A stretch of 33,330 nt of DNA, from the sequence record NZ_CP054625.1; one strand, 5' to 3'. Of this stretch, positions 1 through 33,330 are shown in pieces; position 1 is the stretch's first letter; every line of letters begins with the position of its first letter. The position numbers were made by a program, and so were the translations under genes. Below the pieces are notes generated by a model, which made no database searches, had not been told where the DNA came from, and saw only the letters and a program-made list of their open reading frames with translations. This stretch comes from a plasmid.

Positions 1-344
1 TGTCATCGATATAGGTGCGCATGCCATACGCCATGCCGACCGGCGGAATCGCGCCGAGCACGCAGTCCTTGAACACTTCGCGCACCTCGTCCTCGCTGGC
101 CATCGTCAGCCGGCGCCCGGTGCGCTCGCATAGTTCGGACAGATCGAGCAGGCGGGTCGACGGCATCACCGCCGCCACGTAGCCCGCCTCGTCCTCGAGC
201 AATACCGTCTTGACCAGGCGATCGCCCGGCACATGGGCGGCCTGCGCGGTGGCCATGCTGCCCAGCGCATAGGGGTGGCGGATGATATCGAAATGGCTGT
301 TCTTGGCTGCTCAGGCAAGTCGCCAGGGTGGTTGCCAGTGCCAT
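1..344 (-). CDS. YbaK/ProX-like aminoacyl-tRNA deacylase, N-terminal and central part. The CDS runs off the window start and has an apparent frameshift near 290-312.
   Basis: Manual minus-strand translation of 2-301 gives ...NSHFDIIRHPYALGSMATAQAAHVPGDRLVKTVLLEDEAGYVAAVMPSTRLLDLSELCERTGRRLTMASEDEVREVFKDCVLGAIPPVGMAYGMRTYIDD, which matches the YbaK fold pattern (compare E. coli YbaK ...YKTLLV...GYLVGGISPLGQ...). This frame is absent from the ORF track because it never reaches a stop inside the window. A plausible start MALATTLATCLSS sits at 344 but in a different frame. Confidence 0.6.
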
Positions 345-575
345 GATGGGTCCCCTCATCGAGATCAGGGATGGCGCGCACTGGCGTGAGGCGCGTGGCG
401 CGCCGTCCATCAGCCATCACTGGGGGCGCCGGTGCAACGCTGGCCTGCGGGTATCTACTATAGGACGCGGGGACATGACGCGCGGACGCGGCGGCGGAAC
501 GCGACGCGGCAAGACGGGCGGCGGCGATCGCGCCGTCCATCCAGAACAATTCAGCGGGACATCAGCGGGGGAAGG

Positions 576-878
576 TCACGGTGCCATGCACGGTGACGCC
601 CGGCGGCACATAGACCGGGCGGGTTCGACATAGACCGGCGCCGGGCCGTAGTAGCCGTAGCGCGGCCCTTGCACTTGCGCTCTTCCTTGTAGTCGCCGTT
701 GCCTTGAACTTGCGTTCGACCTTGCAGTTGCCGTCCAGTATTCTTCCTTGTAGTCGCCGCCATGGTGATGGCCGCGCCATTTGCCATGGCCGCTTTCGTC
801 CTTCCAGGGATCGGCCTGGGCGGCCAGCGGCAGCGCGAGCAAGGCGGCGAGACAGAGGGATGTTGCGGTTGCAGTCAT
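576..878 (-). CDS. Small secreted Gly/Tyr/His-rich repeat protein, hypothetical. The frame assignment after the first repeat is uncertain.
   Basis: An ATG at 878 opens a clear signal peptide MTATATSLCLAALLALPLAAQA, followed by DPWKDESGHGKWRGHHHGGDYKEEYW. A GDYKEE-encoding unit recurs 59 nt later, and all three minus-strand frames stay open across 576-880. Confidence 0.45.
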   Translation of the reverse strand: MTATATSLCLAALLALPLAAQADPWKDESGHGKWRGHHHGGDYKEEYWTATARSNASSRQRRLQGRAQVQGPRYGYYGPAPVYVEPARSMCRRASPCMAP

Positions 879-1043
879 GATGGTGTCCCGATCCGATACG
901 GGCCGACGGAGAGTTCTTCTTCTCGAAGAGCTTAGCGCCGGCGCGGAACGCCGGCGACCCATCAGGTGAAACGTCGGTAAGCAAATGTTTCGGCCGATCA
1001 CACCGGCCGGCGCACGCCGACAGGAAGTGGCGATGAAGAAGTG

Positions 1044-1129
1044 TGGTGCGAGGGAGGGGACTCGAACCCTACACCATTGCTGGCGTCAGGACCTAAACCT
1101 GGTGCGTCTACCAATTTCGCCACCCTCGC
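1044..1129 (-). tRNA. tRNA-Leu (anticodon UAG), type II with a long variable arm
   Basis: The reverse complement reads GCGAGGGTGGCGAAATTGGTAGACGCACCAGGTTTAGGTCCTGACGCCAGCAATGGTGTAGGGTTCGAGTCCCCTCCCTCGCACCA. It has a 7-bp acceptor stem, the GTGGCGAAATTGGTAGACGC D-arm typical of tRNA-Leu, the anticodon loop UUUAGGU, the T-loop TTCGAGT and an encoded CCA. It closely resembles E. coli leuW. A C:A mismatch at 27:43 and weak T-stem pairing were noted. Confidence 0.75.
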
Positions 1130-1456
1130 GGTCCAGGCGGTGCCGCCCTGACGGGAGGCACCGCGGTCTGCCGAACATCGGGCCGAAAAAACAAAAGAGG
1201 CGACTGGAACCGCTTGCCGCCCCTGCTTCTCCGACCGGCCTGCGGCGTTGCACCGCTGCCCGGCAAAGACCGCGGATTGTAGCGCATGGTTTCGCGCGAA
1301 TCCAGCCCCCGGGCGGCCCTTCGCCGACACGCCGACACGCCGACGCGCCGTCACGCCATCAAGCCATCACGCCGCTCCCCTGCTCCGGCCGCCGCACGCG
1401 GAACCAGGCCGCGTACAGCGCCGGCAGGAACAGCAGCGTCAGCACCGTGGCGACGA

Positions 1457-4400: not shown

Positions 4401-4465
4401 AGATAGCGGGTCAGCGCCTGGTGCTCGAGCGCCCAGCGCGACAGATTGAATCGGGAGTGCTCCAT
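1457..4465 (-). CDS. RND multidrug efflux permease (AcrB/HAE1 family) with a frameshifted C-terminus; an intact frame would end near 1374
   Basis: The 1002-aa ORF has RND hallmarks throughout (FNDEFGDVYG..., large periplasmic loops, 11 predicted TM segments). The ORF ends ...IPLSRSVFWGRWRWRSWAD*. The +1 frame immediately continues PMAVAIMGGLIVATVLTLLFLPALYAA, which is the conserved TM12 of AcrB-like pumps. Confidence 0.9.
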   Translation of the reverse strand: MEHSRFNLSRWALEHQALTRYLLVVLLLAGLMSYFQLGQDEDPPFTFRVMVVQAFWPGATAEQIAVQVTDKLERQLQEVPYADKIRSFSKPGETTVIFQLRDDAPAKETAQIWYTVRKKIGDIAGTLPAGVRGPFFNDEFGDVYGTIYALSADGFTYKELREYADLVRQQLLRVPSVAKVSLIGLQDEKIYIEFNQTRFAQLGLDLNAIADQIAEQNNLTASGVLVTPSDNVQVRVSGQFADVGDLRNMVLRGPNGAANIRLGDIARVYRGYVDPPAPRMRFNGKDVIGLGISMEKGGDIIALGEALRAEADALRKQLPVGIEMEQVQDQPEAVKRSVGEFVRVLIEAVVIVLAVSFISLGLHTKPLRLDARPGLVVALTIPLVLAVTFLFMNVFDIGLHKVSLGALIIALGLLVDDAIIAVEMMVRKLEEGFSKMEAATFAYTSTAMPMLTGTLITAAGFLPVGLARSTVGEYTFAIFAVTALALVLSWLAAVYFTPYLGYLLLKVKPSEGGHHEVFDTPFYARFRRAVDWCVDWRKTVIAITLGTFALGIFAFQFVQKQFFPDSSRPELMVEMWLPEGASFAQSEAEARRFEAALRGDADVGSITTFVGTGAPRFYLPLDQIFPQSNVVQLIVLPVDVEVRERLRQRIIALLASDFPQLRGRVKLLPNGPPVAYPVQFRVIGPEAATVRRIADQVKAIMSANPNTVGVNDNWNENVKVLRLDIDQEKARALGVTTNAIARVTQTVLTGAPVGQYRDGDKLIDIVMRSAKDEREALADLHNVQVPTSSGRAVPLTQVARIGIRSEPGIVWRENRDFGVTVQADVVDGIQGPTVTAQIDPQLDKLRAELPAGYLITVAGAEEESGKAGASIAAQLPLCVFLIFTLLMLQLHSFSRAVMVFLTGPLGLIGAAATLLLLRSPMGFVAQLGITALVGMIIRNSVILVDQIEQDIRAGVPAWTAIVEAAVRRFRPIMLTAAAAVLAMIPLSRSVFWGRWRWRSWAD

Positions 4466-4475
4466 CGCGGCGCCC

Positions 4476-5610
4476 TTAGCTGCGGGCGGCCGGCGCGCTG
4501 GCCGGCGGGTTTGCCGGCGTCGCGGCGGGGACAGGCGCCGAGGCGGGCGCGACGGCCTGCAACGGCCGCACCTTCTGGCCCGGCTTGAGCAGATGCACGC
4601 CGGCGGTGACGATGGTCTGGCCCGGACGCAGCCCGCTGCTGACCTCGACCTCGTTGCCGATCGGCTGGCCCAGCGTGACCGCGACGGGCTGTACCGTGCC
4701 GGCCGCGCTGTCGTAGACCCAGACCTGGTTGCTGCCCTGCTGCTGCAGCAACGCGGTCAACGGCACGCGCACCGCCGGCGAGGCGCCGGTCCGCACGAAG
4801 GTGACCATCGCGGTCATGCCGAACTTCAGGTCGGCGGGCGGATTGGGCACGGTGATGCGTGCCGCGTAGGTGCGCGTGACCGGATCCGCGGCCGCCGCGA
4901 TCTCGCGCACGCGGCCCGGCAGCCTGCGCTCCGGCTCGGCCCAGGTCCGCACGCTGACGTCGCGGATGTCGCGCAGCCAGTCGACCTGGTCCTCGGGCAG
5001 ACCGATCGCGACCTCCTTCTCGGCGGTCTGCGCGACCCGCACCACCGACTGTCCGGCGCTGACCACCTGCCCCACTTCTGCGTCGATTGCGGTAACCACG
5101 CCGTCGGCATCGGCGGCCAGCACCGTATATCCGGTCTGGTTGCTCTGCTCGCGCAGCGCGGCCTCGGCCTGGCGCAGCCGCGCGGCGGCGGCCTCGTAGC
5201 TGGCCTGGCGACGGTTCTGCTCCGCCGCGCTGATAAAGCCCTTGGCAAACAGGTCGTTGTAGCGCTTCAGATCGGCCGCCGCCAGGTCGCGGTCGGTGCG
5301 CGCCGCCTCGTACTGGGCGCGCGAGCCCTGCTCGGCCAGGTTCAGGTCGGTCGGATCGAGCCGGGCCAGCGGTTGGCCGCGCCGCACAGTCGCCCCGACG
5401 TCGACCAGCCGCGCAGCGATCTTGCCGCCGACGCGGAAGCCGAGCCGCGATTCGATGCGCGGCCGCACGTCGCCGGAGAACTCATAGGCAGACTGGCCTG
5501 TCGCCGACTGCAGCTGCAACAGACGCACCGGCCGGACGTCCGGCGCGCGCTCGGGCTCGCGCGAACAGCCGCCGAGCACCAGCAGGGCAAGCAAGCACGG
5601 CAACACCATG
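4476..5610 (-). CDS. RND efflux periplasmic adaptor (membrane fusion protein), lipoprotein
   Basis: The start MVLPCLLALLVLGGCS at 5610 carries an LGGC lipobox. It is followed by an HlyD/AcrA-like coiled-coil and beta-barrel region. Its stop lies 10 nt upstream of the RND permease start, consistent with co-operonic arrangement. Confidence 0.85.
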
Positions 5611-6015
5611 CCGACGGTCGACGGCAGGGGCTTCAAAGCGTTGACGGCCGCGACTTCCGGCCCAGGGCAAGGCACTGGCATGGATGGCGATGAGACGGGT
5701 GCAACGGCATGACGAGAGGCGACGTGCGCCGGCACGGCCGGACTGGCGGCAAGCCGCAAGGCTGCCGCGCGACACGACAAGGGCGCCGACCGAAGGACGG
5801 CGGGTCCGGCAGTAAATAACCGGCCGGTCAGCAATATATCGACCCCTTCGGGGTGCGTCAAACGCGACGCGACGAACCACCCCATTTGGGGGGTGGAACC
5901 GTCGATTTAGGCGCCAATTGGCGCGTGATGCGTGTCGACGGCCCCCCAATGGGTAGGGTGCCGGGCGTCCCGGCATGCCCTTGCATGCAGGCCGCGTGGT
6001 TACAATGCTGCCGCC

Positions 6016-6966
6016 ATGTCCAAGCCCGACGCGCCTTCCGCCGATACCCCGCAAACGCCGTCCCCGATGCCGGCGTCAATGCCGGACGCCCCCGCGGCCG
6101 CGGAAGGCGATGTCGTGGACCACTACGAGAACTTTCCGGTGGCCAGCGTGCTGCTGCCCCGCCCGCTGCGCCGGCCAGTGGCGGTGATCTACCGCTTCGC
6201 CCGCACCGCCGACGATCTGGCGGACGAGGGCGATGCGGCGCCCGCCGAGCGGCTGGCCGCGCTCGGCGCCCTGTCCGATGCGCTCGAACGCATCGGCGCC
6301 GGCACCGATCCCGGTACGCCGATGATGCGCGCGCTGGCCGAGGTCATCGCCGAATACCGGCTGCCGCTGCCGCTGTTCCACGATCTGCTCGATGCGTTCC
6401 GGCAGGACGTGACGGTGCACCGTCATGCCGACTGGGACAGCCTGCTCGACTATTCGCGCCGCTCCGCGAATCCGGTGGGCCGGCTGATGCTGCATCTGTA
6501 CGGCGCGGCCACGCCGGACCGCTTCGCGCGTGCCGATGCGATCTGCACCGGCCTGCAGCTGGTCAACTTCTGGCAGGACGTCGCGATCGACTTCGCGCGC
6601 GGCCGCATCTACCTGCCCGCCGACGCGATGGCGCGCCACGGCGTCGACGAAAACGCGCTGGCCGAGGGCCGCTGCGACGTGCGCTGGCTGGCGCTGATGG
6701 AGGAGCTGAAGATCCGCACGGAGGCGATGCTACAATCCGGCGCTTCGCTCGCGCTGGACCTGCCTCGCACGGTGGACTGGCGTATCGGCTGGGAGCTGCG
6801 GCTGGTGGTGCAAGGCGGCCTGCGCGTGCTGGAACGCATCGAGGCCGTCGGCTACGATGTCTTCCGGCGCCGTCCGACGCTCGGGCCCGCCGACTGGCTG
6901 CTGCTGGCATGGCGGGCGGCAGCGCGCTACCGCAGCGGCACCGCGCCGAGCAAGCCGGCTCATTGA
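6016..6966 (+). CDS. hpnC: Hydroxysqualene/squalene synthase HpnC (squalene/phytoene synthase family)
   Basis: The N-terminal HYENFPVAS motif and the DD..D and YCYxVAG-like motifs (FARTADDLADE; QLVNFWQDV) are present. It is the first gene of an hpnC-hpnD-hpnE run. Confidence 0.85.
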   Translation: MSKPDAPSADTPQTPSPMPASMPDAPAAAEGDVVDHYENFPVASVLLPRPLRRPVAVIYRFARTADDLADEGDAAPAERLAALGALSDALERIGAGTDPGTPMMRALAEVIAEYRLPLPLFHDLLDAFRQDVTVHRHADWDSLLDYSRRSANPVGRLMLHLYGAATPDRFARADAICTGLQLVNFWQDVAIDFARGRIYLPADAMARHGVDENALAEGRCDVRWLALMEELKIRTEAMLQSGASLALDLPRTVDWRIGWELRLVVQGGLRVLERIEAVGYDVFRRRPTLGPADWLLLAWRAAARYRSGTAPSKPAH

Positions 6967-7035
6967 GTTCGGGACCGAGCCGGGCTTGCATCCGGATCGA
7001 GTCCGGGATCGAGCCCCCAGATTGAGCCCCCCAGT

Positions 7036-7899
7036 GTGTCCCCTAGCGAGCGCGAGACCGCTTTGACGCCCGACCAGTACTGCCAAGACAAGGCCGCCCA
7101 GAGCGGCTCCAGCTTCTACTACAGCTTCCTGTTCCTGCCCCCGGAACGGCGGCGCGCCATCACCGCGCTCTATGCCTGGTGCCGCGAGGTCGACGACGTC
7201 GTCGACGAGACCCAGGACCTGACCGTCGCCCAGCAGCAGCTGGCCTGGTGGCACGGCGAGCTCAAGCGCCTGTTCGCCGGCGAACCGACCCATCCGACCA
7301 CGCTCGCGCTGCAGCCGCATCTGGCCTCCTGCGGCCTGACGCAGCCGATGCTCGCCGAGGTACTGGAGGGCATGGAGATGGACCTGATGCAGACGCGCTA
7401 TCTGGACGAGGCGGGCCTGGACCGTTATTGCCATTGCGTGGCCGGCGTGGTCGGCACGATGAGCGCGCGCATCTTCGGCTACCGCGATCCACGCACGCTC
7501 GAATTCGCCGAGAAACTGGGGCGCTCGCTGCAGCTGGTCAATATCATCCGCGACGTCGGCGAGGATGCGCGGCGCGGCCGGCTCTATCTGCCGGTCAATG
7601 TGCTGCAGCGCTTCGAAGTGCCGGCCGCCGACATCATGCAGGGCCGCCATTCGCCGCGCTTCGTCGCGCTGATGCAATATCACGCCGAACGCGCGCGCAC
7701 CTTCTACCGCGAGGCGCTGGCGCTGCTGCCCGATAGCGACCGCCGCGCCCAGCGCGCCGGCCTGCTGATGGGCGCGATCTATCACGCCCTGCTCGACGAG
7801 ATCGAGGCCAGCGGCTTCCAGGTATTGAACCAGCGCATCTCGCTGACCCCCATGCGCAAGCTGTGGATCGCATGGAAGACGTGGATACGCAACCGCTGA
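7036..7899 (+). CDS. hpnD: Presqualene diphosphate synthase HpnD
   Basis: The GTG start gives MSPSERETALTPDQYCQDKAAQSGSSFYYSFLFLP...YAWCREVDDVVDE...YCHCVAGVVG, the phytoene/squalene synthase fold, placed second in the hpn trio. Confidence 0.85.
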   Translation: MSPSERETALTPDQYCQDKAAQSGSSFYYSFLFLPPERRRAITALYAWCREVDDVVDETQDLTVAQQQLAWWHGELKRLFAGEPTHPTTLALQPHLASCGLTQPMLAEVLEGMEMDLMQTRYLDEAGLDRYCHCVAGVVGTMSARIFGYRDPRTLEFAEKLGRSLQLVNIIRDVGEDARRGRLYLPVNVLQRFEVPAADIMQGRHSPRFVALMQYHAERARTFYREALALLPDSDRRAQRAGLLMGAIYHALLDEIEASGFQVLNQRISLTPMRKLWIAWKTWIRNR

Positions 7900-7907
7900 A
7901 CACCGCG

Positions 7908-9422
7908 ATGGCGGAACGCGCCGCCACGCCCGCCGCCACGCCCGCCGCAACGTCGCCGCGAGCCGGCGACGCGGTGGGCGCAGCCGGCGCGGTCGGCATC
8001 ATCGGCGGCGGCTGGGCCGGCATGGCCGCCGCGCTCGAACTGGCGCAGGCCGGGCGCGTCGTCCATGTGTTCGAAGCCGCGCCGGTGCTCGGCGGCCGCG
8101 CGCGCCGCGTCGCGCGGCGCCATCCGCAGGTGGCAGGCGAACTCGACAACGGCCAGCATCTGCTGCTCGGCGCCTATCGCCATACCCTCGCGCTGATGCG
8201 CCGCGCCGGCGTCGATCCCGATGCCGCGCTGCTGCGGCTGCCGCTGCAGATGGCCTATGCCGATGGCTGGCGGCTGCAGGCGCCGCGCCTGCCGGCGCCC
8301 TGGCATCTGCTCGGCATGGGCCTGACCGCACGCGGGCTGGGCTGGCGCGAGCGCGCGGCATTGGCGCAGGCGCTGTCGCGGCTGCGCGCCGCCAGCGATG
8401 ACGACGATGCTGCTGATACCGATGGCGCGGGTGCCAACATCGGCGGCGAGACCGTCGCCGCGTGGCTGGCGCAGGCACCGTCGTCGCTGCGGGAACGCCT
8501 GTGGTTCCCGCTGTGCGTGGCCGCGCTGAACACCCCGGCCGAACAGGCCGACGCCCGCGTGTTCCGCCGCGTGCTGCGCGACAGCCTGCTGGCGGCGCGC
8601 GGGGACAGCGACATGCTGGTGCCGCGCCGGGACCTGAGCCGGCTGTTTCCCGAGGCCGCCGCGCACGCGATCGTTGCCGCGGGCGGCACGGTACGGACCG
8701 GCGCCGCGGTGCAGGCGATTTCGCAAAGCCCGCACGGCTGGCTGCTGCAGACGCACGCCGGCCGGCAGGAGGTCGCGCAGCTGGTCGTCGCCACCGCGCC
8801 GCGGCAGGCGGCGCGCCTGCTGGCGCAGGTCCCGCATGGCCCGCACCAGGCCGCGCTGCAGGCGGCCGCGGCGAAGCTGCAGGCCTTCGACCATGTGCCG
8901 ATCGTCACGCTGTATCTGAACGTCGGCGCGCTGCGCCTGCCGCGTCCGTTTCTCGCGCTCGACGCCAGCGCCGCCGCGCCGGGTCAGTTCGTCTTCGATC
9001 GCGCCGCGCTGTCGACCGAGCCCCGCGCGTCGGCCGCGCCGGATCACGACAACGTCTGGTCGGTCGTGATCAGCGCGGCCGACGATGCCGCCGCGCTGCC
9101 GCAGGCAGAGCTGGCGCGGCGCGTGCGCGCGCAGCTTGCCACGCAACTCGCACCGTGGATTGCCGGTGCCGCGCACCTTGCCGACGCGCGCGGCGAATTC
9201 GTGATCGCCGAACGCCTGGCCACGTTCCGCTGCATACCGGGCCTGGCGCGTCCCGGCAACGATATCGGCGTGCCGCGCCTGGCGCTGGCGGGCGACTATA
9301 CCGACGGGCGCGACGGCGCCTATGGGCCCTACCCGGCCACCATCGAAGCGGCGACGCGCAGCGGCTCGGCGGCCGCGGCGCTGCTGCAACGCGAACGCGT
9401 GCCGTCCGCCGCGACGGCATGA
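7908..9422 (+). CDS. hpnE: Hydroxysqualene dehydroxylase HpnE (FAD-dependent amine-oxidase-like)
   Basis: The Rossmann motif GIIGGGWAGMAAALELA is near the N-terminus. The ATG at 7908 lies 9 nt after the hpnD stop; an alternative upstream start at 7863 overlaps hpnD. Confidence 0.8.
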   Translation: MAERAATPAATPAATSPRAGDAVGAAGAVGIIGGGWAGMAAALELAQAGRVVHVFEAAPVLGGRARRVARRHPQVAGELDNGQHLLLGAYRHTLALMRRAGVDPDAALLRLPLQMAYADGWRLQAPRLPAPWHLLGMGLTARGLGWRERAALAQALSRLRAASDDDDAADTDGAGANIGGETVAAWLAQAPSSLRERLWFPLCVAALNTPAEQADARVFRRVLRDSLLAARGDSDMLVPRRDLSRLFPEAAAHAIVAAGGTVRTGAAVQAISQSPHGWLLQTHAGRQEVAQLVVATAPRQAARLLAQVPHGPHQAALQAAAAKLQAFDHVPIVTLYLNVGALRLPRPFLALDASAAAPGQFVFDRAALSTEPRASAAPDHDNVWSVVISAADDAAALPQAELARRVRAQLATQLAPWIAGAAHLADARGEFVIAERLATFRCIPGLARPGNDIGVPRLALAGDYTDGRDGAYGPYPATIEAATRSGSAAAALLQRERVPSAATA

Positions 9423-10720
9423 CTTCCCTTCCCATCGACGTACCGAAGAGCCAGCACATGCATTCCCCCTCTCCTTCCCTGGGCCAGTCCATTCTCGATG
9501 CCGCCGAGGCGCTCGCGCGCTTCTCCGATATGGAGGGCGGCCTGACCTGCGCCTATCTGACGCCGGCCCATCGCGCCGCCGCCGCGATGCTGGCCGAACG
9601 CATGCGCGCGGCAGGCATGCAGGTGCGCGTCGATGCGATCGGCAACGTGATCGGCCGCTACGAGGCCGATCCGTCCGCTGGCCCCGATGCGAAGGTACTG
9701 ATGACCGGCTCGCACTTCGACACGGTCCGCAATGGCGGGCGCTATGACGGCCGGCTCGGCATCCTGCTGCCGATCGCGGTGGTCGGCGCGCTGAACGAGG
9801 CCGGCATCCGGCTGCCCTACCATTTCGAGGTGGTCGGCTTTGCCGAGGAGGAGGGGCTGCGCTTCAAGACCAGCTTCCTGGCCAGCAGCGCGCTGGCCGG
9901 CCGCTTCGACCCGGCGCTGCTGGCGCGCGCCGACGCCGACGGCATCACGCTGGCGCAGGCGCTGGCGCAATCGGACCTGCCGGGCGGCGGCGATCCCGAG
10001 GCGCTGCGCGCGGCCGCGGTCGACCCCGCGACGCTGCTGGCCTTCGTCGAGGTCCATATCGAACAGGGACCAGTGCTGCTGCACCATGACCTGCCGCTGG
10101 GCATCGTCACACAGATCGCCGGCAGCAGCCGCTTTCAGGTGCGGGTGGAGGGGCTGGCCAGCCATGCCGGCACCACGCCGATGACGATGCGCAAGGATGC
10201 GGCCGCCGCGGCCGCCGAGATGGTGCTGCTGGTCGAGTCGCGCTGCGCGCAGGCGCCGACGCTGGTCGGCACGGTGGGCCAGCTGCAGGTGCCGAACGGC
10301 TCGAGCAACGTGATTCCTGCCGCGTGCCACTTCTCGATGGATATCCGCGCCGGCGAGGACGCGGTGCGCGAGTCCGCGATCGCCGATATCGTCGCCGGCA
10401 TCGAGGCGATCGCCGCGCGCCGCGGCGTGCGTGCCGAGGTGGAACGGGTGCCGCCGGTCAACAACGCGCCGTGCGCGCCGTGGCTGCGCGAGCAGTTCGC
10501 GGCGGTGCTGAACAAGCGCGGCCTGCAGGCCTTCGAGCTGCCGTCCGGTGCCGGGCACGACGCGATGATGATGCAGCGGATCACCGACGTGGCGATGCTG
10601 TTCGTCCGCTGCGGCAACGGCGGCATCAGCCACAACCCGCTGGAGACCATCACCGCCGAGGACGCGCAGCTGGCGGCGGAGGTGTTCGTCGATTTCCTGC
10701 GGCATTTCCGGCCGCGGTAA
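9419..10720 (+). CDS. Zn-dependent M20-family amidase (allantoate amidohydrolase or N-carbamoyl-L-amino-acid hydrolase type)
   Basis: The sequence MTGSHFDTVRNGGRYDGRLG...VGFAEEEG...GAGHDAMMM is the pattern of the AllC/AmaB/hydantoinase-carbamoylase M20 family. The ATG at 9419 overlaps the hpnE stop as ATGA; 9458 is an alternative start. Confidence 0.8.
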   Translation: MTSLPIDVPKSQHMHSPSPSLGQSILDAAEALARFSDMEGGLTCAYLTPAHRAAAAMLAERMRAAGMQVRVDAIGNVIGRYEADPSAGPDAKVLMTGSHFDTVRNGGRYDGRLGILLPIAVVGALNEAGIRLPYHFEVVGFAEEEGLRFKTSFLASSALAGRFDPALLARADADGITLAQALAQSDLPGGGDPEALRAAAVDPATLLAFVEVHIEQGPVLLHHDLPLGIVTQIAGSSRFQVRVEGLASHAGTTPMTMRKDAAAAAAEMVLLVESRCAQAPTLVGTVGQLQVPNGSSNVIPAACHFSMDIRAGEDAVRESAIADIVAGIEAIAARRGVRAEVERVPPVNNAPCAPWLREQFAAVLNKRGLQAFELPSGAGHDAMMMQRITDVAMLFVRCGNGGISHNPLETITAEDAQLAAEVFVDFLRHFRPR

Positions 10721-24792: not shown

Positions 24793-24833
24793 AGGCTCCG
24801 TAGTCTCCTGCCGCCGCATTGCCCTGTCCCCAA

Positions 24834-24949
24834 CCCTCTCCCGCAAGCGGGAGAGGGAGAACGCCGCCGGTGTCGGCGACCCCATCCCCGCTCCGTAACG
24901 CTTCCCGCCTCCGCCACCCGGCCCCCTCTCCCGCTTGCGGCAGAGGGGC
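24834..24949. repeat. Pair of REP-like GC palindromes (CCCTCTCCCGC-nn-GCGGGAGAGGG at 24834-24857, and a near-copy at 24921-24949)
   Basis: The first is a perfect 11-bp stem with a 2-nt loop. The second, cccctctcccgc ttg cggcagagggg, has one mismatch. They are 64 bp apart. Confidence 0.5.
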
Positions 24950-24974
24950 TTGAGCAGTGGCAAGCCGCACCCGT

Positions 24975-25074
24975 CACCGCGTCTTCCAATACATTGCAAA
25001 CAATATCAATAACTTGCATCGTCAAATACGAATCATTACCATTTGTGTTTTGAATTCCGTAACAAAATATTGGC
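24975..25074 (+). promoter_or_regulatory. About 100-bp AT-rich island (unusual in this GC-rich DNA) with Fur-box-like motifs, placed as the promoter of the iron-uptake operon
   Basis: aatacattgcaaacaatatcaataacttgcatcgtcaaatacgaatcattaccatttgtgttttgaattccgtaacaaaatattgg. GAATCATTACC matches 9 of 11 positions of the Fur consensus half TAATCATTATC. A TonB-dependent receptor and PepSY gene downstream fit Fur control. Confidence 0.45.
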
Positions 25075-25351
25075 GATGCAACTCTTTGCCGCTCTTCTCG
25101 GCCTGGCGGGCGCTGCCTGCCTGTATCTGGCCGGTCCCAACCAGGTGCTGCTGCGCCGGCCGCCCCAACGCCGGATGATGGTGTGGCTCGGCATCGTGCT
25201 GACGTCGGCCGGCGCGGTCGGCTGGTCGGTCGAGCACAGCTGGCCCTCTTCGATCGCCGCGACGCTGGCCACGCTCGGCACCGGCCTGTCGCTGTGGCCC
25301 TTCCTTGGCTGTTATCTGCACAAGCGCCGCGGCGGCGAGGAGGCGGCATGA
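25075..25351 (+). CDS. Small three-TM inner-membrane protein of the PepSY/TonB iron-uptake operon (DUF3325-like, tentative)
   Basis: MQLFAALLGLAGAACLYLAGPNQVLL...; hydrophobic, 91 aa, first gene after the AT-rich promoter. Confidence 0.5.
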
Positions 25352-25632
25352 ACGGCGGCATCGGTACCAAATGGCTGGCCGGCACCCTGCTCGGCTTTCC
25401 GCTGTCGCTGGCGGTCTGCACGCTGGCGATCCTGTGGCTGCCGGGCGGCTGGCAGAGCGGCATCATCGGCGCGGTGACCGCCAGCCTGCCGCTGTGGGTC
25501 GCGATCATCAGCACCAGCCTGCTGTTTTCCAGCAGCCGCGCCGCCTGGCTCTGGCTTGGCGCGGCCAATCTGATCTGTTTCGGTGCGTTGTGGGGATGGC
25601 GGCTGATGGCCGTGCCCGGCGCGGCCGCGTAA
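25348..25632 (+). CDS. Small three-TM inner-membrane protein (hypothetical), start overlapping the previous stop as ATGA
   Basis: MNGGIGTKWLAGTLLGFPLSLAVCTLAILWL...; 94 aa and hydrophobic. Confidence 0.5.
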   Translation: MNGGIGTKWLAGTLLGFPLSLAVCTLAILWLPGGWQSGIIGAVTASLPLWVAIISTSLLFSSSRAAWLWLGAANLICFGALWGWRLMAVPGAAA

Positions 25633-25642
25633 GGAGTTGGCC

Positions 25643-27274
25643 ATGAAGGCTGCAACGCTGCGCGTTTATCAGACGCTGCATACCTGGGTCGGCCTGATGG
25701 CCGGCTGGGCCCTGTTCATCGCGTTCTTCGCCGGCGCGATCACGGTGTTCCACCACGAGCTGCACGAGTGGCAGTCGCCGGCGCGTATCCGCGGCGAAAC
25801 CCACACCGCCGCCAAGCCGTCGCCCGAGGACCTGGACCGCTTCGTCGCCACGCTGGTCAAGGCCCATCCCGAGGCCGCGGCCAGCGTCTATATCGGCCTG
25901 CCGACCGAAGGCGAGCCGCACACCACTGCCTACTGGATGGACGCCAAGGGCGAGTGGCAGACCACCAACGAGGAGAAGCTCGGCGCGGGCCGGACCTCGC
26001 CGCAGGACACCTCGCTCGACGGCGTGCGCGGCGAGCTGTCGAACTTCCTGAACGCCCTGCACTACACGCTGGGCCTGCCGATGCAGGCCGGCATGCATTT
26101 CATGGGCGTGGTGTCGGTGCTGTACGGGCTGGCGCTGGTTTCCGGCGTGCTGCTGCATCTGCCGCGGCTGAAGAAGGACCTGTTTGCCGTGCGCCCGGGC
26201 CGCAACCTGAAGCGCTTCTGGATGGACGCGCACAACGTGATCGGCCTGTTCAGCCTGCCCTTCCATCTGGTCATCGCGATCACCGGCGCGCTGTTCTGCG
26301 TGTCGATGACGCTGACGATGGCCTTCAACGTGCTGACCTTCGACGGCAAGCTGATGTCGGCCCTGCCTACCGCAATGTCGTCGGTGCCGGAGGTGCAGGC
26401 GGCCGGCAAGCCGGCGCCGCTGATGCCGGCGCGCGAACTGATCGAGATCGCGCAGCGCACCGCCGGCGACGGCTTCAAGCCGAATTCCGTCCGTTATCAG
26501 CGTGTGGGCGACGCCAATGCGCTGATCGAAGTGCGCGGCGACAGCGAGCGCGCGCTCGGCAATTTCGGCTCGGTCGGCATCCATGCCGCCGCCGGCCAGC
26601 CCGACAGCGGGCGCGTGATCGCCAATCAGACCGCCAGCGGGCGGGACGCCAACCATGGCCTGTACAGCGCGCTGTTCGCGCTGCATTTCGGCACCTACGG
26701 CGACCTGGCGCTGCGGCTGGTCTATCTGATCGCCGGGCTGGCGGGGGCCTTCCTGTTCTACTCGGGCAATCTGCTGTGGATCGAGTCGCGCCGCAAGGCA
26801 CGCCAGGCCGAGCAGCCGCGCGTGCACCGGCTGCTGGCGCAGGCCACGGTCGGCGTCTGCATCGGCTGCTGTGTCGGCGTGGCGGTGGCCTTCACCGGCG
26901 CGCTGCTGTGGCCCGAGCGTCCGTCGTCGTTTGTCTACTTCCCGGTGTTCTTCGCCGCGCTGGCCTGGGCGCTGCTGCGTCCGCCCGTGCGCGCCGCGAT
27001 CGAGCTGCTGTACGCGGCGGCGCTGGCCTATCTGGCGGTACCGGTGGCCAACGCGATCCTGACCGGCGACCATCTGCTGCGCAGCGTGCGGCAAGGCGAA
27101 TGGGCCGTCGCCGGCTTCGACATCGGCGCGCTGGTGTTCGCGGTCGGCTTCGTCGCGCTGGCACGCGCCACGCAGCGCCGTGCCCGCACCGGCCCCGCCG
27201 ACTCGGTATGGGCGCCGCGCCCGAGCCGCGGCGATCCGGGCCCGTCGGCGCCGCCGGTGGTCGACACGCCGTAA
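25643..27274 (+). CDS. PepSY-associated TM-helix protein (PiuB-like iron-regulated membrane protein)
   Basis: An N-terminal TM segment, periplasmic region and further TM helices arranged as in PepSY_TM proteins. AAGGAG lies 6 nt before the ATG at 25643. Confidence 0.8.
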   Translation: MKAATLRVYQTLHTWVGLMAGWALFIAFFAGAITVFHHELHEWQSPARIRGETHTAAKPSPEDLDRFVATLVKAHPEAAASVYIGLPTEGEPHTTAYWMDAKGEWQTTNEEKLGAGRTSPQDTSLDGVRGELSNFLNALHYTLGLPMQAGMHFMGVVSVLYGLALVSGVLLHLPRLKKDLFAVRPGRNLKRFWMDAHNVIGLFSLPFHLVIAITGALFCVSMTLTMAFNVLTFDGKLMSALPTAMSSVPEVQAAGKPAPLMPARELIEIAQRTAGDGFKPNSVRYQRVGDANALIEVRGDSERALGNFGSVGIHAAAGQPDSGRVIANQTASGRDANHGLYSALFALHFGTYGDLALRLVYLIAGLAGAFLFYSGNLLWIESRRKARQAEQPRVHRLLAQATVGVCIGCCVGVAVAFTGALLWPERPSSFVYFPVFFAALAWALLRPPVRAAIELLYAAALAYLAVPVANAILTGDHLLRSVRQGEWAVAGFDIGALVFAVGFVALARATQRRARTGPADSVWAPRPSRGDPGPSAPPVVDTP

Positions 27275-27484
27275 CACCGGCCGCACCGGGCCTCCCCGGT
27301 GCCCCCACCGCACCCACCGAGGCGCGGCAGGGCCGAGCGGCGCGGTTCCCGGCGCCGCGGCCCACAACACCACCCCCCACCCAATCTGCACAGCTCCCAG
27401 GCGCACGCGGTCCCCCGTGGCGTCCGGGGAGCCGTGCGCGTTCGCATAACGCATTCGCATCACGACCGAAGAGGAAATCGAGCC

Positions 27485-29698
27485 ATGTCCAACCCTCGCC
27501 GCGGCCGCCCCGCGCTGACACCGCTGGCGCGCCAGCTTGCCCTGATCGTCGCCGTCGGCGGCGCCGCCACGCCGGCGCTCGCGCAGAACGCCACGGGCAC
27601 CGCCGCCGTTCCACCTACCCCCGCTGCCACACCCACCGCCACCGCGCAGGCCGAACTGCCGACCGTCCACGTCACCGCCGGCAGCGAGCCCGCCTATCGC
27701 GCCCGCGACGCCAGCACCGGCGCCCTCGGCGACAAGCCGCTGCAGGACACGCCGTTCTCGGTGTCGGTGGTGCCGCAGGAGCTGATCGAGAACCGCCAGG
27801 CCATCACGCTGGGCGACGTGTTCCGCGGCGATCCGTCGGTCGCGCCGATCGGCGACGGCTATATCGGCGAGTCGGCGGGTTTGACGATCCGTGGCCTGCA
27901 TCTCGATCTGCTCGAGGGCTACAAGATCGACGGCCTCGCCATCCCGAACTGGGGCAGCGACGTGCCGCTCGAACACTTCGAACGCGTCGAGCTGCTCAAG
28001 GGCCTCGGCGGCTTCATGTACGGCTTCGGCGCACCGGGCGGCATCGCCAACTTCGTCACCAAGCGCCCCACCTCGAAATTCGCCGGCAGCGCGACGCTCG
28101 GCTATGTCTCGGACGGGGTGCTGCGCGAGTCGATCGACGTCGGCGGCCGCTTCGGCGCGAACGACATGTTCGGCGCGCGCGCCGGCTTCGTGCACGAGGA
28201 AGGCGACACCTTCGTCGACGGCGGCCATATCAAGCGCGATTCCGCCTCGGTGGCGCTCGACGCAAGGCTGAGCCCCAACCTGCGCTGGTCGCTCGACGGC
28301 CTCTACCAGCAGCGCAACGTCAAGGGCGCCTACTACGGCATCATCCCCGGCCAGGACTTCGGCGCGCCGGTGACCGAATTCGTCCACACGCCCCGCACGC
28401 TCGACGGCAGCCAGCGCGTGGCGAGCAAGGGCACCTATTACGAGACCGAGATCAAGAGCATCGGCACGGAGCTCAACTGGGGCTTCGCCGACGACTGGAA
28501 CCTGCGCACCTCGTACCGCTTCACGCAGCAGAACCGCGGCAACGCCGACAGCGCGATCCTGCTGCTGGACAACGCCGGCAACTACGCCGAGAACCAGTAC
28601 AGCTCGTACTCGCGCTACCACTATCAGCACGCCCAGACGATGGCGACCGGCAAGGTCCGCACCGGCAGCATCGAGCACGACATCGCCGCGGGCCTGTCGT
28701 GGCAGAGCCTGGTGCAGAACTGGGGCAGCTTCGCCGGCGGCGGCATCATCGGCTACGGCAATCTGTACGATCCCGGCCAGTTCGTGCCGACCGGCCTGCC
28801 GCTGTCGCGCGTGCCGTCGTCGGACGTGCTGTACCGCGCGTCGAAGATCGAGCAGAAGTCCGTCTTCTTCAGCGACACGATCAAGTTCAACGAGCAGTGG
28901 TCGGTACTGGCTGGCCTGCGCTACACGCGCTACGACCAGACCGGCTACACGCCGGAGGGCGCGATCTCGAGCACCTACAGGAAGTCGCCGCTGACGCCGA
29001 CCGTCGCGCTGATGTACAAGCCGGTGCAGCCGCTGACGCTGTACGGCAGCTATGTCGAATCGCTCGAAGCCGGAGGCTCCGCACCGCTGACCGCGCGCAA
29101 CGCGGGCGAGGTGTTCGGTCCGCTCAAGAGCCGCCAGTACGAGATCGGCGCCAAGGCCGAACTGGAGGACTGGACCATCAATGCGGCGCTGTTCCAGATC
29201 CAGCGCGGCCTGAACTACCTTCGCAACGACAACGTCTACACGCAGGATGGCGAGACCCGCTATCGCGGCATCGAACTGTCGGCCCGCGGCAAGCTCGCGC
29301 GCGACTGGACGCTGATGGGCGGCGTCACGCTGCTCGATTCGGAGAACGTCGAAGCTTCGCCAGACGTGCTGGGCAAGCGGGCCTACAGCGCGCCGACCTT
29401 CAAGGCCACCGCCTACATCGAGTACGCGGTACCGCCCGTGCCCGGCCTGGTGCTGACCGCCGGCGGCCAGTACGTGTCGAAGATGGCGCTGGAGGCGAAC
29501 AACAGCAACTGGGTGCCGGCGTACCACACCTTCGATGCGGGTATCCGCTATTCGACCAAGCTGGGCAAGACGCCGGCGGTGTTCCGGCTGGTGGTCGACA
29601 ACCTGACCAACGAGAAGTACTGGCTGCCAAGCTACGGCTTCATCCTGACCCAGGGTGCGCCGCGTACGGTGCGGGCCAGCGCGACGTTCAGCTTCTGA
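27485..29698 (+). CDS. TonB-dependent outer-membrane siderophore receptor
   Basis: Signal peptide; a TonB-box region (ELPTVHVTA); the plug domain (FSVSVVPQELIENRQAITLGDVFR...TIRG); a 22-strand barrel ending with the C-terminal aromatic ...RASATFSF. Confidence 0.9.
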   Translation: MSNPRRGRPALTPLARQLALIVAVGGAATPALAQNATGTAAVPPTPAATPTATAQAELPTVHVTAGSEPAYRARDASTGALGDKPLQDTPFSVSVVPQELIENRQAITLGDVFRGDPSVAPIGDGYIGESAGLTIRGLHLDLLEGYKIDGLAIPNWGSDVPLEHFERVELLKGLGGFMYGFGAPGGIANFVTKRPTSKFAGSATLGYVSDGVLRESIDVGGRFGANDMFGARAGFVHEEGDTFVDGGHIKRDSASVALDARLSPNLRWSLDGLYQQRNVKGAYYGIIPGQDFGAPVTEFVHTPRTLDGSQRVASKGTYYETEIKSIGTELNWGFADDWNLRTSYRFTQQNRGNADSAILLLDNAGNYAENQYSSYSRYHYQHAQTMATGKVRTGSIEHDIAAGLSWQSLVQNWGSFAGGGIIGYGNLYDPGQFVPTGLPLSRVPSSDVLYRASKIEQKSVFFSDTIKFNEQWSVLAGLRYTRYDQTGYTPEGAISSTYRKSPLTPTVALMYKPVQPLTLYGSYVESLEAGGSAPLTARNAGEVFGPLKSRQYEIGAKAELEDWTINAALFQIQRGLNYLRNDNVYTQDGETRYRGIELSARGKLARDWTLMGGVTLLDSENVEASPDVLGKRAYSAPTFKATAYIEYAVPPVPGLVLTAGGQYVSKMALEANNSNWVPAYHTFDAGIRYSTKLGKTPAVFRLVVDNLTNEKYWLPSYGFILTQGAPRTVRASATFSF

Positions 29699-29741
29699 CG
29701 TGGTGCCGTCGCGGCAGCAAGACGCAAGCAGAAACGAGGAA

Positions 29742-29770
29742 GGCGGACCGGTGGGTCCGCCGTGTTGTCG
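29742..29770. terminator. Bidirectional terminator-like hairpin between the convergent TonB-receptor and Rpn genes
   Basis: ggcggacc ggtg ggtccgcc followed by gtgttgtcg. Confidence 0.5.
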
Positions 29771-29794
29771 CGCTGGTCCTTGGCGAGGGTCGCG

Positions 29795-30729
29795 TCAGGC
29801 CCGGAAAACGTCCTCGATCACTTCCGCGCGCAGAAGCTGAATGCCCCAGCGCTCGAGTTCTTCAGAGGTTGCGATCTCGATCCGCTGCACAACGGACGTT
29901 TGCAGCGGGCCAAAGCGCTCGGCCAACTGCTTTTGCAGCATGCGGGCCTCGCCTTCTTGCCGAGCCTCCTCGCGGAGCTTGTGGGTGAAACGTTGTAGAT
30001 TGGCACCTACCACTTGCATGTCGACCTCCATCAATTGAAACACCTGATCGGGTGTCAGGACGCTGCCCCGTTGGCCGCACAGCAATGCCGCGAAGGTCTT
30101 GGCGAACGCCAGCTTGAGTTTCGGCTCATGCCGCAAGCGCGTCCTGCATTCGATCATCAGCGACACGACAGTATCGTAATCGGCTGCCCGCTCAATGCGA
30201 AACAGCAGCGCCGCTAGATTGTCATCGGGCAACTGCGCTTCGCTCAATCGGTTGATGTCCAGCAACGTATGTTGCTGGTGCAATTGACACGCTGCCAAGC
30301 CGTTGGGCAGCGACACAACGACATCGCGGATGTTCGTACATGCGCTCCATGGCGTATCGCCGTTATACAGGACGATCGACAGCGCCGCCGGCACCCTGCG
30401 ATCCGGCAACACCTGGCCCGCGCGAACAAGCTCCTGGTGCAGCAAAGCCGTATAGGCCGCCATGCGCGGCGCCATGTAGCGATCGATGGTGCTCTGGAAT
30501 TCGAGCAGCACGTACAGGTGGCCCCATGGATCGCCGGCATCGACACGCCACACCATGTCGCTGGCACGCTGCCGCATGTTGTCGGCGACGTAGTTGCCGG
30601 AAACCCGTTCCAGCGTCGAGTAGTCCAGCGCGCGAAGCCAGTCGCTGCGAATGAATTCGCGCAAGAGGTCGCGCATCATTTCCGGCATGGCGAACAACAG
30701 TTTGTAGCCGGCGTCGTAGTCCCTGGCCA
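29795..30729 (-). CDS. Rpn-family recombination-promoting nuclease / putative transposase (YhgA-like, PD-(D/E)XK)
   Basis: The ATG at 30729 gives MARDYDAGYKLLFAMPEMMRDLLREFI..., the canonical Rpn/YhgA N-terminus. The protein is 311 aa and carries the C-terminal DUF4351-like helix-rich tail. Confidence 0.85.
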
Positions 30730-30892
30730 TTGCTTCGTTCAGCGTTGTTGAGATGCCGCAAAGAATGCCTTTGCACGGGACCTCGTGCTGACGAAAAGAT
30801 GTGCCGTACTTTAGGTTGCAGACGGGATGGGGCGAGCCAGCTTCGCCACGGCGTGATCCGGCTTCCGGGCCCTGCAACGGAACGAGGCCCGC

Positions 30893-31831
30893 TCAACCGA
30901 CCAGATTCGCTTCCATCGCCGCCTTCAGATCGGCAATCAGGTCGCGCGTATCCTCCAGCCCGATATACAGCCGCACCAGTTCGCCAGCGTCCTGCCAGCC
31001 GGCGGGCGGCCAGCTGCCCGCCGGGCGCATCGTCGGCACGTGGTACGGCACGGCCAGGCTGTGCGCGCCGCCCCAGGACCAGCCGATCGAGAACAGTCGC
31101 AGCGCCTCGACGAAGGCATCGACCTGGGCGCGCGGATAGCGCGCGCGCAGCACTACCGCGAACAGGCCGCTCGCCCCGGAGAAATCGCGGCGCCAGAAAG
31201 CGTGGCCGGGACAGTCCGGCAGCGCCGGATGCAGGACCCGGGCAACCTCGGGCCGCTGCGCCAGCCACTCGGCGACCTCGCGGGCGGCGCGGTCGTGCGC
31301 GGCGAGCCGCACCGGCATGCTCGGCAGCGAGCGCAGCACCAGGTAGCAGTCGTCGGCCGACACGCCCCAGCCCATCAGCATGCGCACGCGCTTGATGCGC
31401 TGGTAGAGCTTGTCGTCGCGGCACAGCACCGCGCCCATCAGCACATCGCTGCCGCCGGACTGGTACTTCGTCAGCGCCTGCACGGACAGGTCGATGCCCT
31501 TGTCGAAGGGACGGAAATAGATGCCGGCCGACCAGGTGTTGTCGATCGCGGTCAGCACGCCGCGCGCCTTGGCGGCGGCGACGATGGCCTCGCTGTCCGG
31601 CACCTCCATCGTCACGGAGCCCGGGGCCTCCATCCAGATCAGCCGCGTATTGGGCCGGATCAGCTCGGCGATGCCGGCGCCGATCATCGGGTCGTAGGGT
31701 CGTACCGTGATGCCGAAATCGCGCGCCAGCCATTCGCCGTGCTCGCGATTGGGACCGTAGACGTTGTACGGCACCAGCACGTCGTCGCCGGCCTTCAGCA
31801 GCGCGAAATAGACCAGCGAGATCGCGCCGAG
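30893..31831 (-). CDS. metC: Cystathionine beta-lyase (MetC-like, Cys/Met-metabolism PLP enzyme), C-terminal about 310 aa only; the N-terminal roughly 95 aa are absent and it is fused in frame to an mnmC fragment
   Basis: Colinear with E. coli MetC from about residue 95 onward: ...[31 protein letters not shown]...[10 protein letters not shown] (PLP lysine)...[16 protein letters not shown]. Confidence 0.75.
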
Positions 31832-32155
31832 GCCGGCGTGCAGCTCGGCCAGCCCCTCGCGTGTGAACGGATGCTTCTCGATCGAGACGAAATGCAGGCG
31901 CGCGCAGCGGCGCGGATCGTCGCGCCAGGCCTGCCACGTCGCCAGGAAATTGAGCCCCTGGCCAAAGCCCGTCTCGACGATGACGAACTGCTCCCGGCCC
32001 TGCCACGCCTGCGGCAGGCCATTGCCGCCGAGAAACACGTGCCGCGCCTGCGCCAGTCCGCCCTCGACGCTGTGATAGACGTCGTCATAGCGCGGCGAGT
32101 ACGGCGTCCCCTGGTCGGACAGGATCGGCTCGGCGGGATCGAGGGCGCGGGGCAT
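31832..32155 (-). CDS. mnmC: MnmC N-terminal methyltransferase-domain fragment (first about 110 residues of tRNA mnm5s2U bifunctional MnmC), fused in frame to the metC segment
   Basis: [47 protein letters not shown]...[17 protein letters not shown]...[22 protein letters not shown] matches the E. coli MnmC N-terminus (EGTPVSRDFDDVYFS...ESGFGTGLNFLTLWQAF...[20 protein letters not shown]). Confidence 0.7.
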
Positions 32156-32301
32156 CGGGAGAACAAAAACGGGGCGGAGGACTGCGGGGAAAGGCGTCTC
32201 GCGGCACGGCAAAACCGCCGCAGCATGCTGCATGACGGCGCTGGGCGCCGCGGAAGGTCGGCCGGATGGTAGCATGGCGCCCTGCTCCGCCCGCCCCTGC
32301 C

Positions 32302-33159
32302 ATGCTCAGCTATCGCCACGCCTTTCACGCCGGCAATCACGCCGACGTTCTCAAGCACGCCATCGTCGCCCACCTGCTCGATTACCTGACGCAGAAGGAC
32401 AAGCCGTTCTGGTATATCGACACGCATGCCGGCGCCGGCCTCTATGCGCTGGACGAAGGCTACGCGACCAGGAAGTCGGAGTTCGAGACCGGCATCGCGC
32501 CGCTGTGGCGCGCCGCCGCGGACGGCCGTGCGCTGCCGCCGCTGCTGCAGCAATACCTGGACCAGGTGCGCACGCTCAATCCCGACGGCCGCCTGCGGCA
32601 CTATCCCGGCTCGCCGTGGCTGGCCTGGCAGACGCTGCGCGAGGCGGACCGGCTGCGGCTGTTCGAATTGCACAGCACCGAGATCCAGGTGCTGCGCGAG
32701 AACTTCCGCGGCGCGGGCCGTCGCGTGATGCTGTATGACGGTGATGGTTTCGGCGGCATCAAGGCCATCCTGCCGCCCCCGCCGCGCCGCGCGCTGGTGC
32801 TGATCGATCCGTCTTACGAGGACAAGCAGGACTACGCGCGCACCTTGCAATGCCTGCGCGACGGGCTGCAGCGCTTTGCCACGGGGACCTATGCGGTCTG
32901 GTATCCGCAGGTGCAGCGGCGCGAGTCCGTGCAATTGCCGGTCCAGATGAAGGCGCTGCCGTTCAAGAGCTGGCTGCACGCGACGCTGACCGTCAAGCAC
33001 CCGGTGCCCGGCGGACTCGGCCTGCACGGCAGCGGCATGTTCGTCGCCAATCCGCCGTGGACCTTGCGCGCCGCGCTGGAGGCGGCGCTGCCGGCGCTGG
33101 TCGAACTGCTCGGCCAGGACGCCGGCGCCGCCTTCACGCTGGAAGGCGAACAGCCCTGA
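32302..33159 (+). CDS. rlmJ: 23S rRNA m6A2030 methyltransferase RlmJ
   Basis: [22 protein letters not shown]...[10 protein letters not shown]...FVANPPW is the RlmJ signature, colinear with E. coli RlmJ. Confidence 0.85.
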
Positions 33160-33199
33160 GCGCGGGACAGCGCTGCGTGCCGGCGCTGCGCCCGCCCCG

Positions 33200-33330
33200 C
33201 TACATCATGCGGCGGGTGAACTGCCCTCGCTCGGCGCCGGCCATCAGATCCAGGAACGCTTCCGTCGTCATATGGATCAGTTCCTCGTGGTCGCCCGCCT
33301 CGAAATAGACCTCGGGCTGGCCGAGCAGGC
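33200..33330 (-). CDS. C-terminal 42 codons plus stop of a YbaK/ProX-like deacylase, entering from beyond the window end and reading in frame into the ORF at the window start
   Basis: Minus-strand translation from 33328 gives LLGQPEVYFEAGDHEELIHMTTEAFLDLMAGAERGQFTRRMM*, which matches the YbaK C-terminus (compare ...[27 protein letters not shown]). It is absent from the ORF track because it is edge-truncated. Confidence 0.6.
   Translation of the reverse strand, partial: LLGQPEVYFEAGDHEELIHMTTEAFLDLMAGAERGQFTRRMM

Follow-up and report, generated by a model that had tools for sequence, protein, structure and literature searches.

The window (the whole stretch of DNA that was analysed, 33,330 nucleotides long) is, as judged from its sequence, a single piece of chromosome of 33,330 bp whose two ends are joined to each other, because natural contigs tile all of it in rotated order. 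Its sole departure from the native order is a switch from mnmC to metC at 31825-31836. The joint is of an already known kind (duplication, circle or assembly closure), and the chimeric open reading frame (ORF) that spans it is a by-product, not a working gene. The origin that we consider probable is that short-homology recombination made a head-to-tail joint in the sequenced culture, and that an assembler emitted the segment as a self-closing contig.

Extent and domain content of the chimeric ORF

The features found at the joint are the following:

30893..32275, minus strand: chimeric ORF, 460 aa as listed, 420 aa from 32153
31837..32153, minus strand: mnmC 5' fragment, native codons 1-106 and the first base of codon 107, identical to natural contig L092
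31825..31836, plus strand CGCCGAGGCCGG, coding strand CCGGCCTCGGCG: crossover zone, 12 bp of perfect microhomology, codons 147-151
30893..31824, minus strand: metC 3' part, native codons 109-418 and the stop codon

The ORF listing of the window gives a product of 460 aa for the frame at 30893..32275 on the minus strand. When the mnmC gene call of L092 (6926-8965) is mapped onto the window, the native MnmC start (MPRALDP) falls at 32153. On this comparison, the first 40 codons of the listed ORF are likely an upstream extension, and the chimera would be 420 aa long from its likely real start.

Pfam detected a single domain in the 460-aa ORF, PF01053 (Cys/Met metabolism PLP enzyme; aa 146-455, profile positions 74-381 of 381), and neither PF05430 nor PF01266 was matched. 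Both parents were recognized with NCBIfam models. The cystathionine beta-lyase model PRK07050 aligned with aa 147-457 (model positions 88-392 of 394) at 567.7 bits and thereby passed its curated cut-off of 500 bits, for which the C-terminal 310 residues alone suffice. The MnmC model PRK01747 aligned with aa 47-151 (model positions 2-106 of 645) at 173.2 bits, below its whole-protein cut-off of 540, as against 856.9 bits for the native MnmC of this strain. A preliminary description of this DNA had proposed a chimeric ORF with an abrupt homology switch somewhere within 31800-31860, and both the two-part match and the position of the switch bear this out.

The same description had held that neither partner is complete and that the product is unlikely to be functional, a view with which the domain limits agree. 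Native MnmC of the same strain has 679 aa, with MnmC2 at aa 18-231 and MnmC1 at aa 252-653. The fragment retained in the chimera amounts to roughly one half of MnmC2, the methyltransferase domain, which is cut near residue 108 of 231; MnmC1, the FAD oxidoreductase domain, is absent. On the other side of the joint, the MetC part lacks the first ~105 of 418 residues, and positions 1-87 of the PRK07050 model are missing. The joint lies at native MetC residue 106-108, which aligns with residue 86-88 of E. coli MetC (1CL1); the missing N-terminal segment is the one that in the E. coli enzyme gives Tyr56/Arg58 to the active (PLP) site of the neighbouring subunit.

Compared with native MnmC (PRK01747, a bifunctional tRNA mnm5s2U34 enzyme), the DNA is identical but only residues 1-107 of 679 are found in the chimera. 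Compared with native MetC (PRK07050), the DNA is again identical but only residues 109-418 of 418 are present; the metC part shows zero mismatches to contigs L084, L087 and L088, and L086 is 100% identical over 24830-31685. Judged by these truncations, the chimera is without essential parts of both enzymes, and its product is very unlikely to work.

Base composition shows no step at the mnmC/metC switch. A promoter and terminator scan of 30700-32450 found no sigma-70-like promoter site. One terminator-like hairpin lies on the joint, at chance level for that scan.

The window is a rotated chromosomal segment

The window was compared by blastn with C. gilardii CCUG 38401 (contig L003). Window 31815-33330 corresponds to L003 9552-11065, and window 1-9846 corresponds to L003 11066-20891. 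Positions 33330 and 1 of the window are adjacent in L003 and in ten further natural contigs (L089-L098), and a PF04073 gene is cut by the window edges, so that the wrap-around of YbaK noticed in the preliminary description is confirmed. Tiling is provided by L092 (window 31815-33330 plus 1-9822), L099 (7347-24856, 100% identity), L083 (19796-31844), L084 (24828-31844) and L086 (24830-31685). The genes that mark the two sides of the joint and the window edges are these:

32302..33159, plus strand: rlmJ-like gene (PF04378), divergent from mnmC, its native neighbour; PF04378 is found in 10 of 10 natural places
33200..33330, minus strand: ybaK-like gene (PF04073), 3' part, cut by the window edge and continued at 1-343
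1..343, minus strand: ybaK-like gene (PF04073), 5' part, with a one-base insertion at 305
29795..30730, minus strand: rpn-like gene (PF04754 Transposase_31 and DUF4351), directly downstream of metC

In the native order, mnmC reads towards tig and is divergent from rlmJ. Beyond rlmJ lie, among others, the RND pump, hopanoid genes, the two-component system, ispDF and mfd, followed by peptidases and the TonB receptor, and finally by rpn, metC and the bktB/pha genes, with metC reading towards rpn and the bktB/pha genes reading towards metC. Native mnmC and metC are located on the same strand, 33.3 kb apart. In the window, the metC-proximal end of the segment is joined to its own mnmC-proximal start in direct orientation. 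This head-to-tail topology fits either a tandem duplication (A-S-S-B, where S is the segment) or a circle of S.

The segment carries genes for an RND permease with its adaptor, SQS_PSY and amine-oxidase proteins of hopanoid type, M20 peptidases and a two-component system, together with AhpC/CMD, ispDF, mfd, a HAD hydrolase, PepSY_TM and a TonB-dependent siderophore receptor. Its gene order is shared by Cupriavidus sp. H18C1, C. cauae and other C. gilardii. The rpn-like gene lies next to native metC in C. gilardii, whereas Cupriavidus sp. H18C1 lacks it. On gene content and synteny, the segment is ordinary core chromosome (C. gilardii chromosome 1).

To our knowledge, no Pfam family recorded on the tiling contigs belongs to replication, partition, integrase, relaxase or phage structural proteins. 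A plasmid, a phage or an integrative element was rejected as the identity of the segment on the grounds that no such Pfam family was recognized among those recorded for its genes, that gene order is conserved, and that window 31300-32300 gave no match in PLSDB or INPHARED. No mention of a plasmid of ~33 kb was found in the literature on C. gilardii genomes.

When the window was compared with same-strain contigs derived from Illumina reads, 11 single-base indels and zero substitutions were detected. All the indels lie within 305-1487, most of them in short runs of G or C. Homopolymer indels without substitutions are some indication that the window stems from a long-read assembly. The window-specific frameshifted RND permease (1002 aa) is not on record in an exact-product look-up. 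The composition of window 1-3000 is nothing unusual. The location of the error cluster, at 305-1487, is misplaced for a simple picture in which coverage falls away from the joint.

A 12 bp microhomology at the seam

A three-way comparison of the seam was made with the window, native mnmC (L003, L092) and native metC (L083-L085). The coding strands, with same-strain references for the two parents, read as follows:

mnmC: ...GAGCTGCACG CCGGCCTCGGCG AGCTCGCT...
metC: ...CTGCTGCCGT CCGGCCTCGGCG CGATCTCG...
window: ...GAGCTGCACG CCGGCCTCGGCG CGATCTCG...

The window is identical to mnmC (L092) through the 12-mer and to metC (L084) from the 12-mer on, with zero mismatches on either side, and mnmC and metC have little similarity around it. 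The 12-mer occurs once in the window. It encodes (Ala/Ser)-Gly-Leu-Gly, and the fusion is in frame because the two parents share the codon phase of the 12-mer. A previous estimate of 3-9 bp of microhomology, obtained with Cupriavidus sp. H18C1, which has SNPs at the joint, was discarded and replaced by the same-strain value of 12 bp.

In 2 million simulated random joins within the window, the probability of finding at least 12 bp of microhomology was 1.2e-5. An arbitrary cut followed by rotation is therefore very unlikely, and the join appears to have been guided by homology rather than made by a blind cut. This bears on one of the options raised in the preliminary description, namely that the original ends of a linear segment had been brought together here by rotation. 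The topology implied by that option holds: the order ~31832-33330 followed by 1-~31831 is native, and true neighbours meet at the window edges. The arbitrary nature of the cut ends does not, in view of the 12 bp identity and its probability.

Native genomes carry intact mnmC and metC

A homologue search of the chimera was performed against 5.8 billion protein clusters and yielded 7,997 matches, the best 120 of which were examined. Coverage among these 120 was at most 76% of the chimera, and all were plain MetC (Cupriavidus cystathionine beta-lyases). Close relatives carrying the same in-frame fusion, which the preliminary description had named as the observation that would speak against it, were thus not seen among the best 120 homologues, and the native loci hold separate genes. 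In an exact-product look-up, neither the 460-aa nor the 420-aa chimeric product was on record. Window 31300-32300 gave no megablast match in PLSDB or INPHARED. The exact junction sequence was not found in IMG/VR or JGI metagenomes, and neither were the non-junction mnmC patterns of the window.

The two sides of the joint were traced separately in natural DNA. The DNA belongs to C. gilardii or to a species very close to it. The rlmJ product is 100% identical in amino acid sequence to that of C. gilardii CCUG 38401, and each of the 10 natural places with an identical RlmJ has, divergent from rlmJ, a gene for full-length MnmC (679 or 683 aa); tig-clpP-clpX-lon lie beyond it. Native metC DNA was reached through the rpn-like neighbour, and the MetC cluster members P0122 and P0133 are not on record. 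An identical rpn-like protein is found in 6 natural places. Five of them extend to the 5' end of metC, and all five contain a full 418-aa MetC; upstream of metC on L083, the one long contig, lie bktB and pha genes. Both sides occur in the same SRA samples, in each case without a mismatch to the window; runs in which this strain is present at zero mismatches are SRR24269694, SRR31155647, SRR31155648, SRR31155650, SRR35367210, SRR33585352 and ERR085347. In several samples of the identical strain only the intact parents are seen, and in the closest strains both genes are intact and 33 kb apart.

Origin of the joint

The joint links the distal end of the segment, in direct orientation, to its proximal start, and it matches each parent exactly up to a microhomology that is longer than expected by chance. 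In the explanation that we favour, the 12-mer CCGGCCTCGGCG in metC would have paired with the identical 12-mer in mnmC, 33,330 bp away. Unequal sister-chromosome exchange and template switching at a short direct repeat are possible routes. The outcome would be a tandem duplication (A-S-S-B) or, if the event were intramolecular, an excised circle of S; a free circle seems less likely. The chimeric ORF would then begin with the start codon and the first 107 codons of mnmC and go on with codons 109-418 of metC, and it would be transcribed, if at all, from the mnmC promoter. A tandem duplication would keep both parental genes intact at its outer borders, and for this reason the joint could exist without cost and without any need for function.

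The second half of this explanation concerns the assembly. A long-read assembler most likely output the repeated unit as a self-closing contig of its own, and this proposal would account for a window of exactly one unit with an arbitrary start inside ybaK. For the two lengths to agree exactly, however, one must also assume that the window is the whole self-closing contig. That the join took place in cells and not in the tube or in software, that a tandem duplication is to be preferred over a circle, and that the assembler acted as described are all points that we infer.

Known systems offer two points of comparison. Eight candidate spontaneous duplication junctions have been tested in Salmonella, and five of them were verified, with 11-27 bp of microhomology; ligation chimeras show a short, random distribution of microhomology (PMC3411829). 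For RecA-independent joining in bacterial tandem duplications, the range quoted is 5-25 bp (bioRxiv 10.64898/2026.05.22.727201). By analogy, a head-to-tail joint formed at a direct repeat of 12 bp would correspond to the classical picture of a RecA-independent short-junction duplication. The window resembles the short-junction tandem duplications of Salmonella (PMC3411829) and of the 'Tandem' tool (bioRxiv 10.64898/2026.05.22.727201) in its head-to-tail joint between sites tens of kb apart, in its perfect short direct repeat (12 bp here) with no extended homology around it, in the novel chimeric ORF formed at the joint, and in that the segment is ordinary chromosomal DNA. It differs from them in that it shows one self-closed unit and not an A-S-S-B array with outer borders.

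The other comparison is with spurious small circular contigs from long-read assemblies, which are the output of an assembler for collapsed tandem duplications or chimeric reads. Shared traits are a length of one unit, an arbitrary start inside a gene, residual homopolymer indels, duplication of chromosomal sequence, and the lack of replicon functions. A difference is that the sequence around the joint of the window is error-free.

A chimera generated in vitro or during assembly is the main rival explanation, which we regard as less probable: a template switch during amplification (phi29 MDA of a plasmidome or low-input library, for instance, or PCR), or a few chimeric long reads, would have been followed by closure of the contig, and no chromosome would ever have contained the joint. 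Polymerase template switching in vitro uses microhomology and would give an identical sequence; chimeras produced by template switching in MDA are also formed at microhomologies. The homopolymer errors in 305-1487 suggest thin or poorly polished coverage, and the joint is in none of the public collections searched, several samples with the identical strain having only intact parents. However, several kb on each side of the joint are error-free when compared with natural contigs, which argues for decent coverage of the joint and not for one bad read. Another mild argument is that the joint is direct, whereas MDA chimeras are mostly inverted. As for simple ligation chimeras, they are made without microhomology, and 12 bp lies far out in the random distribution (PMC3411829). 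An artefact of construction with no physical joint behind it, either a rotated linear slice or a false 'circular' call on a short terminal match with subsequent trimming and rotation, seems improbable. It would account for a window length exactly equal to unit length and for window ends that are native neighbours. Very permissive circularity tests, with about 10 bp of terminal identity, do exist in some older pipelines, but the usual tests need at least 20 bp, and assembler overlaps, of length k-1, amount to at least 21, not 12. In addition, a shared stretch of 12 bp or more would arise from a blind cut only at P ~ 1.2e-5, and a virus or plasmid pipeline would have no reason to keep a segment that lacks recognized mobile or viral Pfam families.

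The preliminary description had also considered a genuine deletion or rearrangement breakpoint. A chromosomal deletion that fused mnmC to metC, with the chimera as the only copy, is attractive in principle, as a deletion between two co-oriented genes gives an in-frame fusion of truncated genes, but it is refuted here by the head-to-tail topology. In the window the end of the segment is joined to its start; deleting the segment would give the reciprocal product, metC-N::mnmC-C, and would lose all the content of the window. Furthermore, the window edges are native neighbours, unlike those of a slice through a deletion breakpoint. Deletion of the remaining 3.4 Mb of the chromosome would be the same as the circle version of the short-homology recombination that we favour. 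Scarcely conceivable, finally, is a natural bifunctional MnmC-MetC protein with a function of its own. The frame is open for 460 codons and the MetC part alone scores above the PRK07050 cut-off, but both domains are truncated, neither of them being complete, and the architecture is absent among the best 120 of the 7,997 matches. With the genes intact and 33 kb apart in the closest strains, and separate and full-length at the native loci, a conserved natural fusion gene was rejected.

Significance and possible cargo

The chimeric ORF should be neither annotated nor mined as a new bifunctional enzyme, and it would be wrong to regard the 33.3 kb sequence as a plasmid or mobile element, since it consists of core chromosome joined end to end. 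A physical joint would be the trace of one spontaneous event of short-homology duplication or circularization in C. gilardii, with the crossover at base-pair resolution. Such an event would be routine biology and would be of interest only if the amplification were selected.

There is a small chance that selection did play a role. One may imagine that the 33.3 kb unit really exists in a C. gilardii population, amplified or outside the chromosome, and is kept for its cargo, and that the Rpn nuclease may have started the break. The RND efflux permease with its adaptor, the TonB-dependent siderophore receptor and the AhpC/AhpD-like pair may be candidates for the selected cargo, in which case the unit may represent an amplification of the heteroresistance type, in a species that is emerging as multidrug-resistant. 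The rpn-like gene, which encodes an Rpn-family recombination-promoting nuclease, lies 1.1 kb from the joint. Rpn proteins are reported to promote RecA-independent recombination in E. coli (PMC5350276) and, elsewhere, to be toxic DNA endonucleases with a role in defence against phages (PMC10400941). The rpn-like gene is the only mobile-looking gene in the segment.

Natural counterparts of the window

Many unrelated sequencing runs hold a strain that is identical to the window, with zero mismatches; the natural contigs concerned are listed below.

Natural contigs matching the window with zero mismatches, by sequencing run
L086 and L096: SRR24269694
L087: SRR31155647
L088: SRR31155650
L094: SRR31155648
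L084: SRR35367210
L099: SRR33585352
L092: ERR085347

A scaffold from a TARA ocean metagenome (L083) is also closely related (~99% identity to the window), and its rpn-like protein is identical. Wherever these same-strain contigs and L083 reach mnmC and metC, both genes are intact. Such recurrence across unrelated runs would fit a C. gilardii lineage that is either widespread or a contaminant, Cupriavidus being a known contaminant of water and reagents. Two separate rlmJ loci (L008 and L009), with 96% identity to the window, were found in the metagenome-assembled genome Cupriavidus sp. RH59_bin.035; two strains are probably mixed in this bin.

Window edges and the adjacent indel cluster

The window edges split the following gene, whose two halves directly adjoin each other in all native contigs examined:
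33200-33330 plus 1-343, minus strand: ybaK-like gene, Cys-tRNA(Pro) deacylase family (PF04073; native length 157 aa)

Compared with same-strain natural contigs (L092, L094-L098), the window shows eleven single-base indels, nine deletions and two insertions, between 305 and 1487, mostly within short G or C runs. No substitutions were found in that interval, and no further differences outside it in the compared range (1-9822). Three genes are frameshifted by the indels: the ybaK-like gene at its 5' end, a 106-aa gene and, at its 3' end, an RND permease, which is 1002 aa long in the window versus 1035. The cluster resembles a long-read consensus that was left unpolished. In the same region, at ~1108-1444, several short-read contigs also break.

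Surroundings of the mnmC/metC joint

Two features lie at or near the joint:
29795-30730, minus strand: rpn-like gene (PF04754 Transposase_31 plus DUF4351; weak NCBIfam match to RpnA)
31813-31830, minus strand: terminator-like hairpin overlapping the joint, with a 6 bp stem and then a T-rich tail

The block that carries the rpn-like gene (29699-30886) is located between metC and a TonB-dependent receptor. In each of the six C. gilardii-like contigs recovered through it, the block adjoins metC; it is absent from Cupriavidus sp. H18C1. The rpn-like gene is about 1.1 kb from the joint, and any part it may have played in forming the joint is purely speculative. The hairpin is at chance level, as one terminator-like hairpin was observed versus 0.5 expected in shuffles.

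In the 460-aa chimeric ORF, codons 1-40 (32154-32275) form an upstream extension that reaches into the mnmC-rlmJ intergenic region and overlaps the longest rlmJ ORF (32266). The native start of MnmC is at 32153, and that of RlmJ is probably at 32302 (MLSYRHAF).
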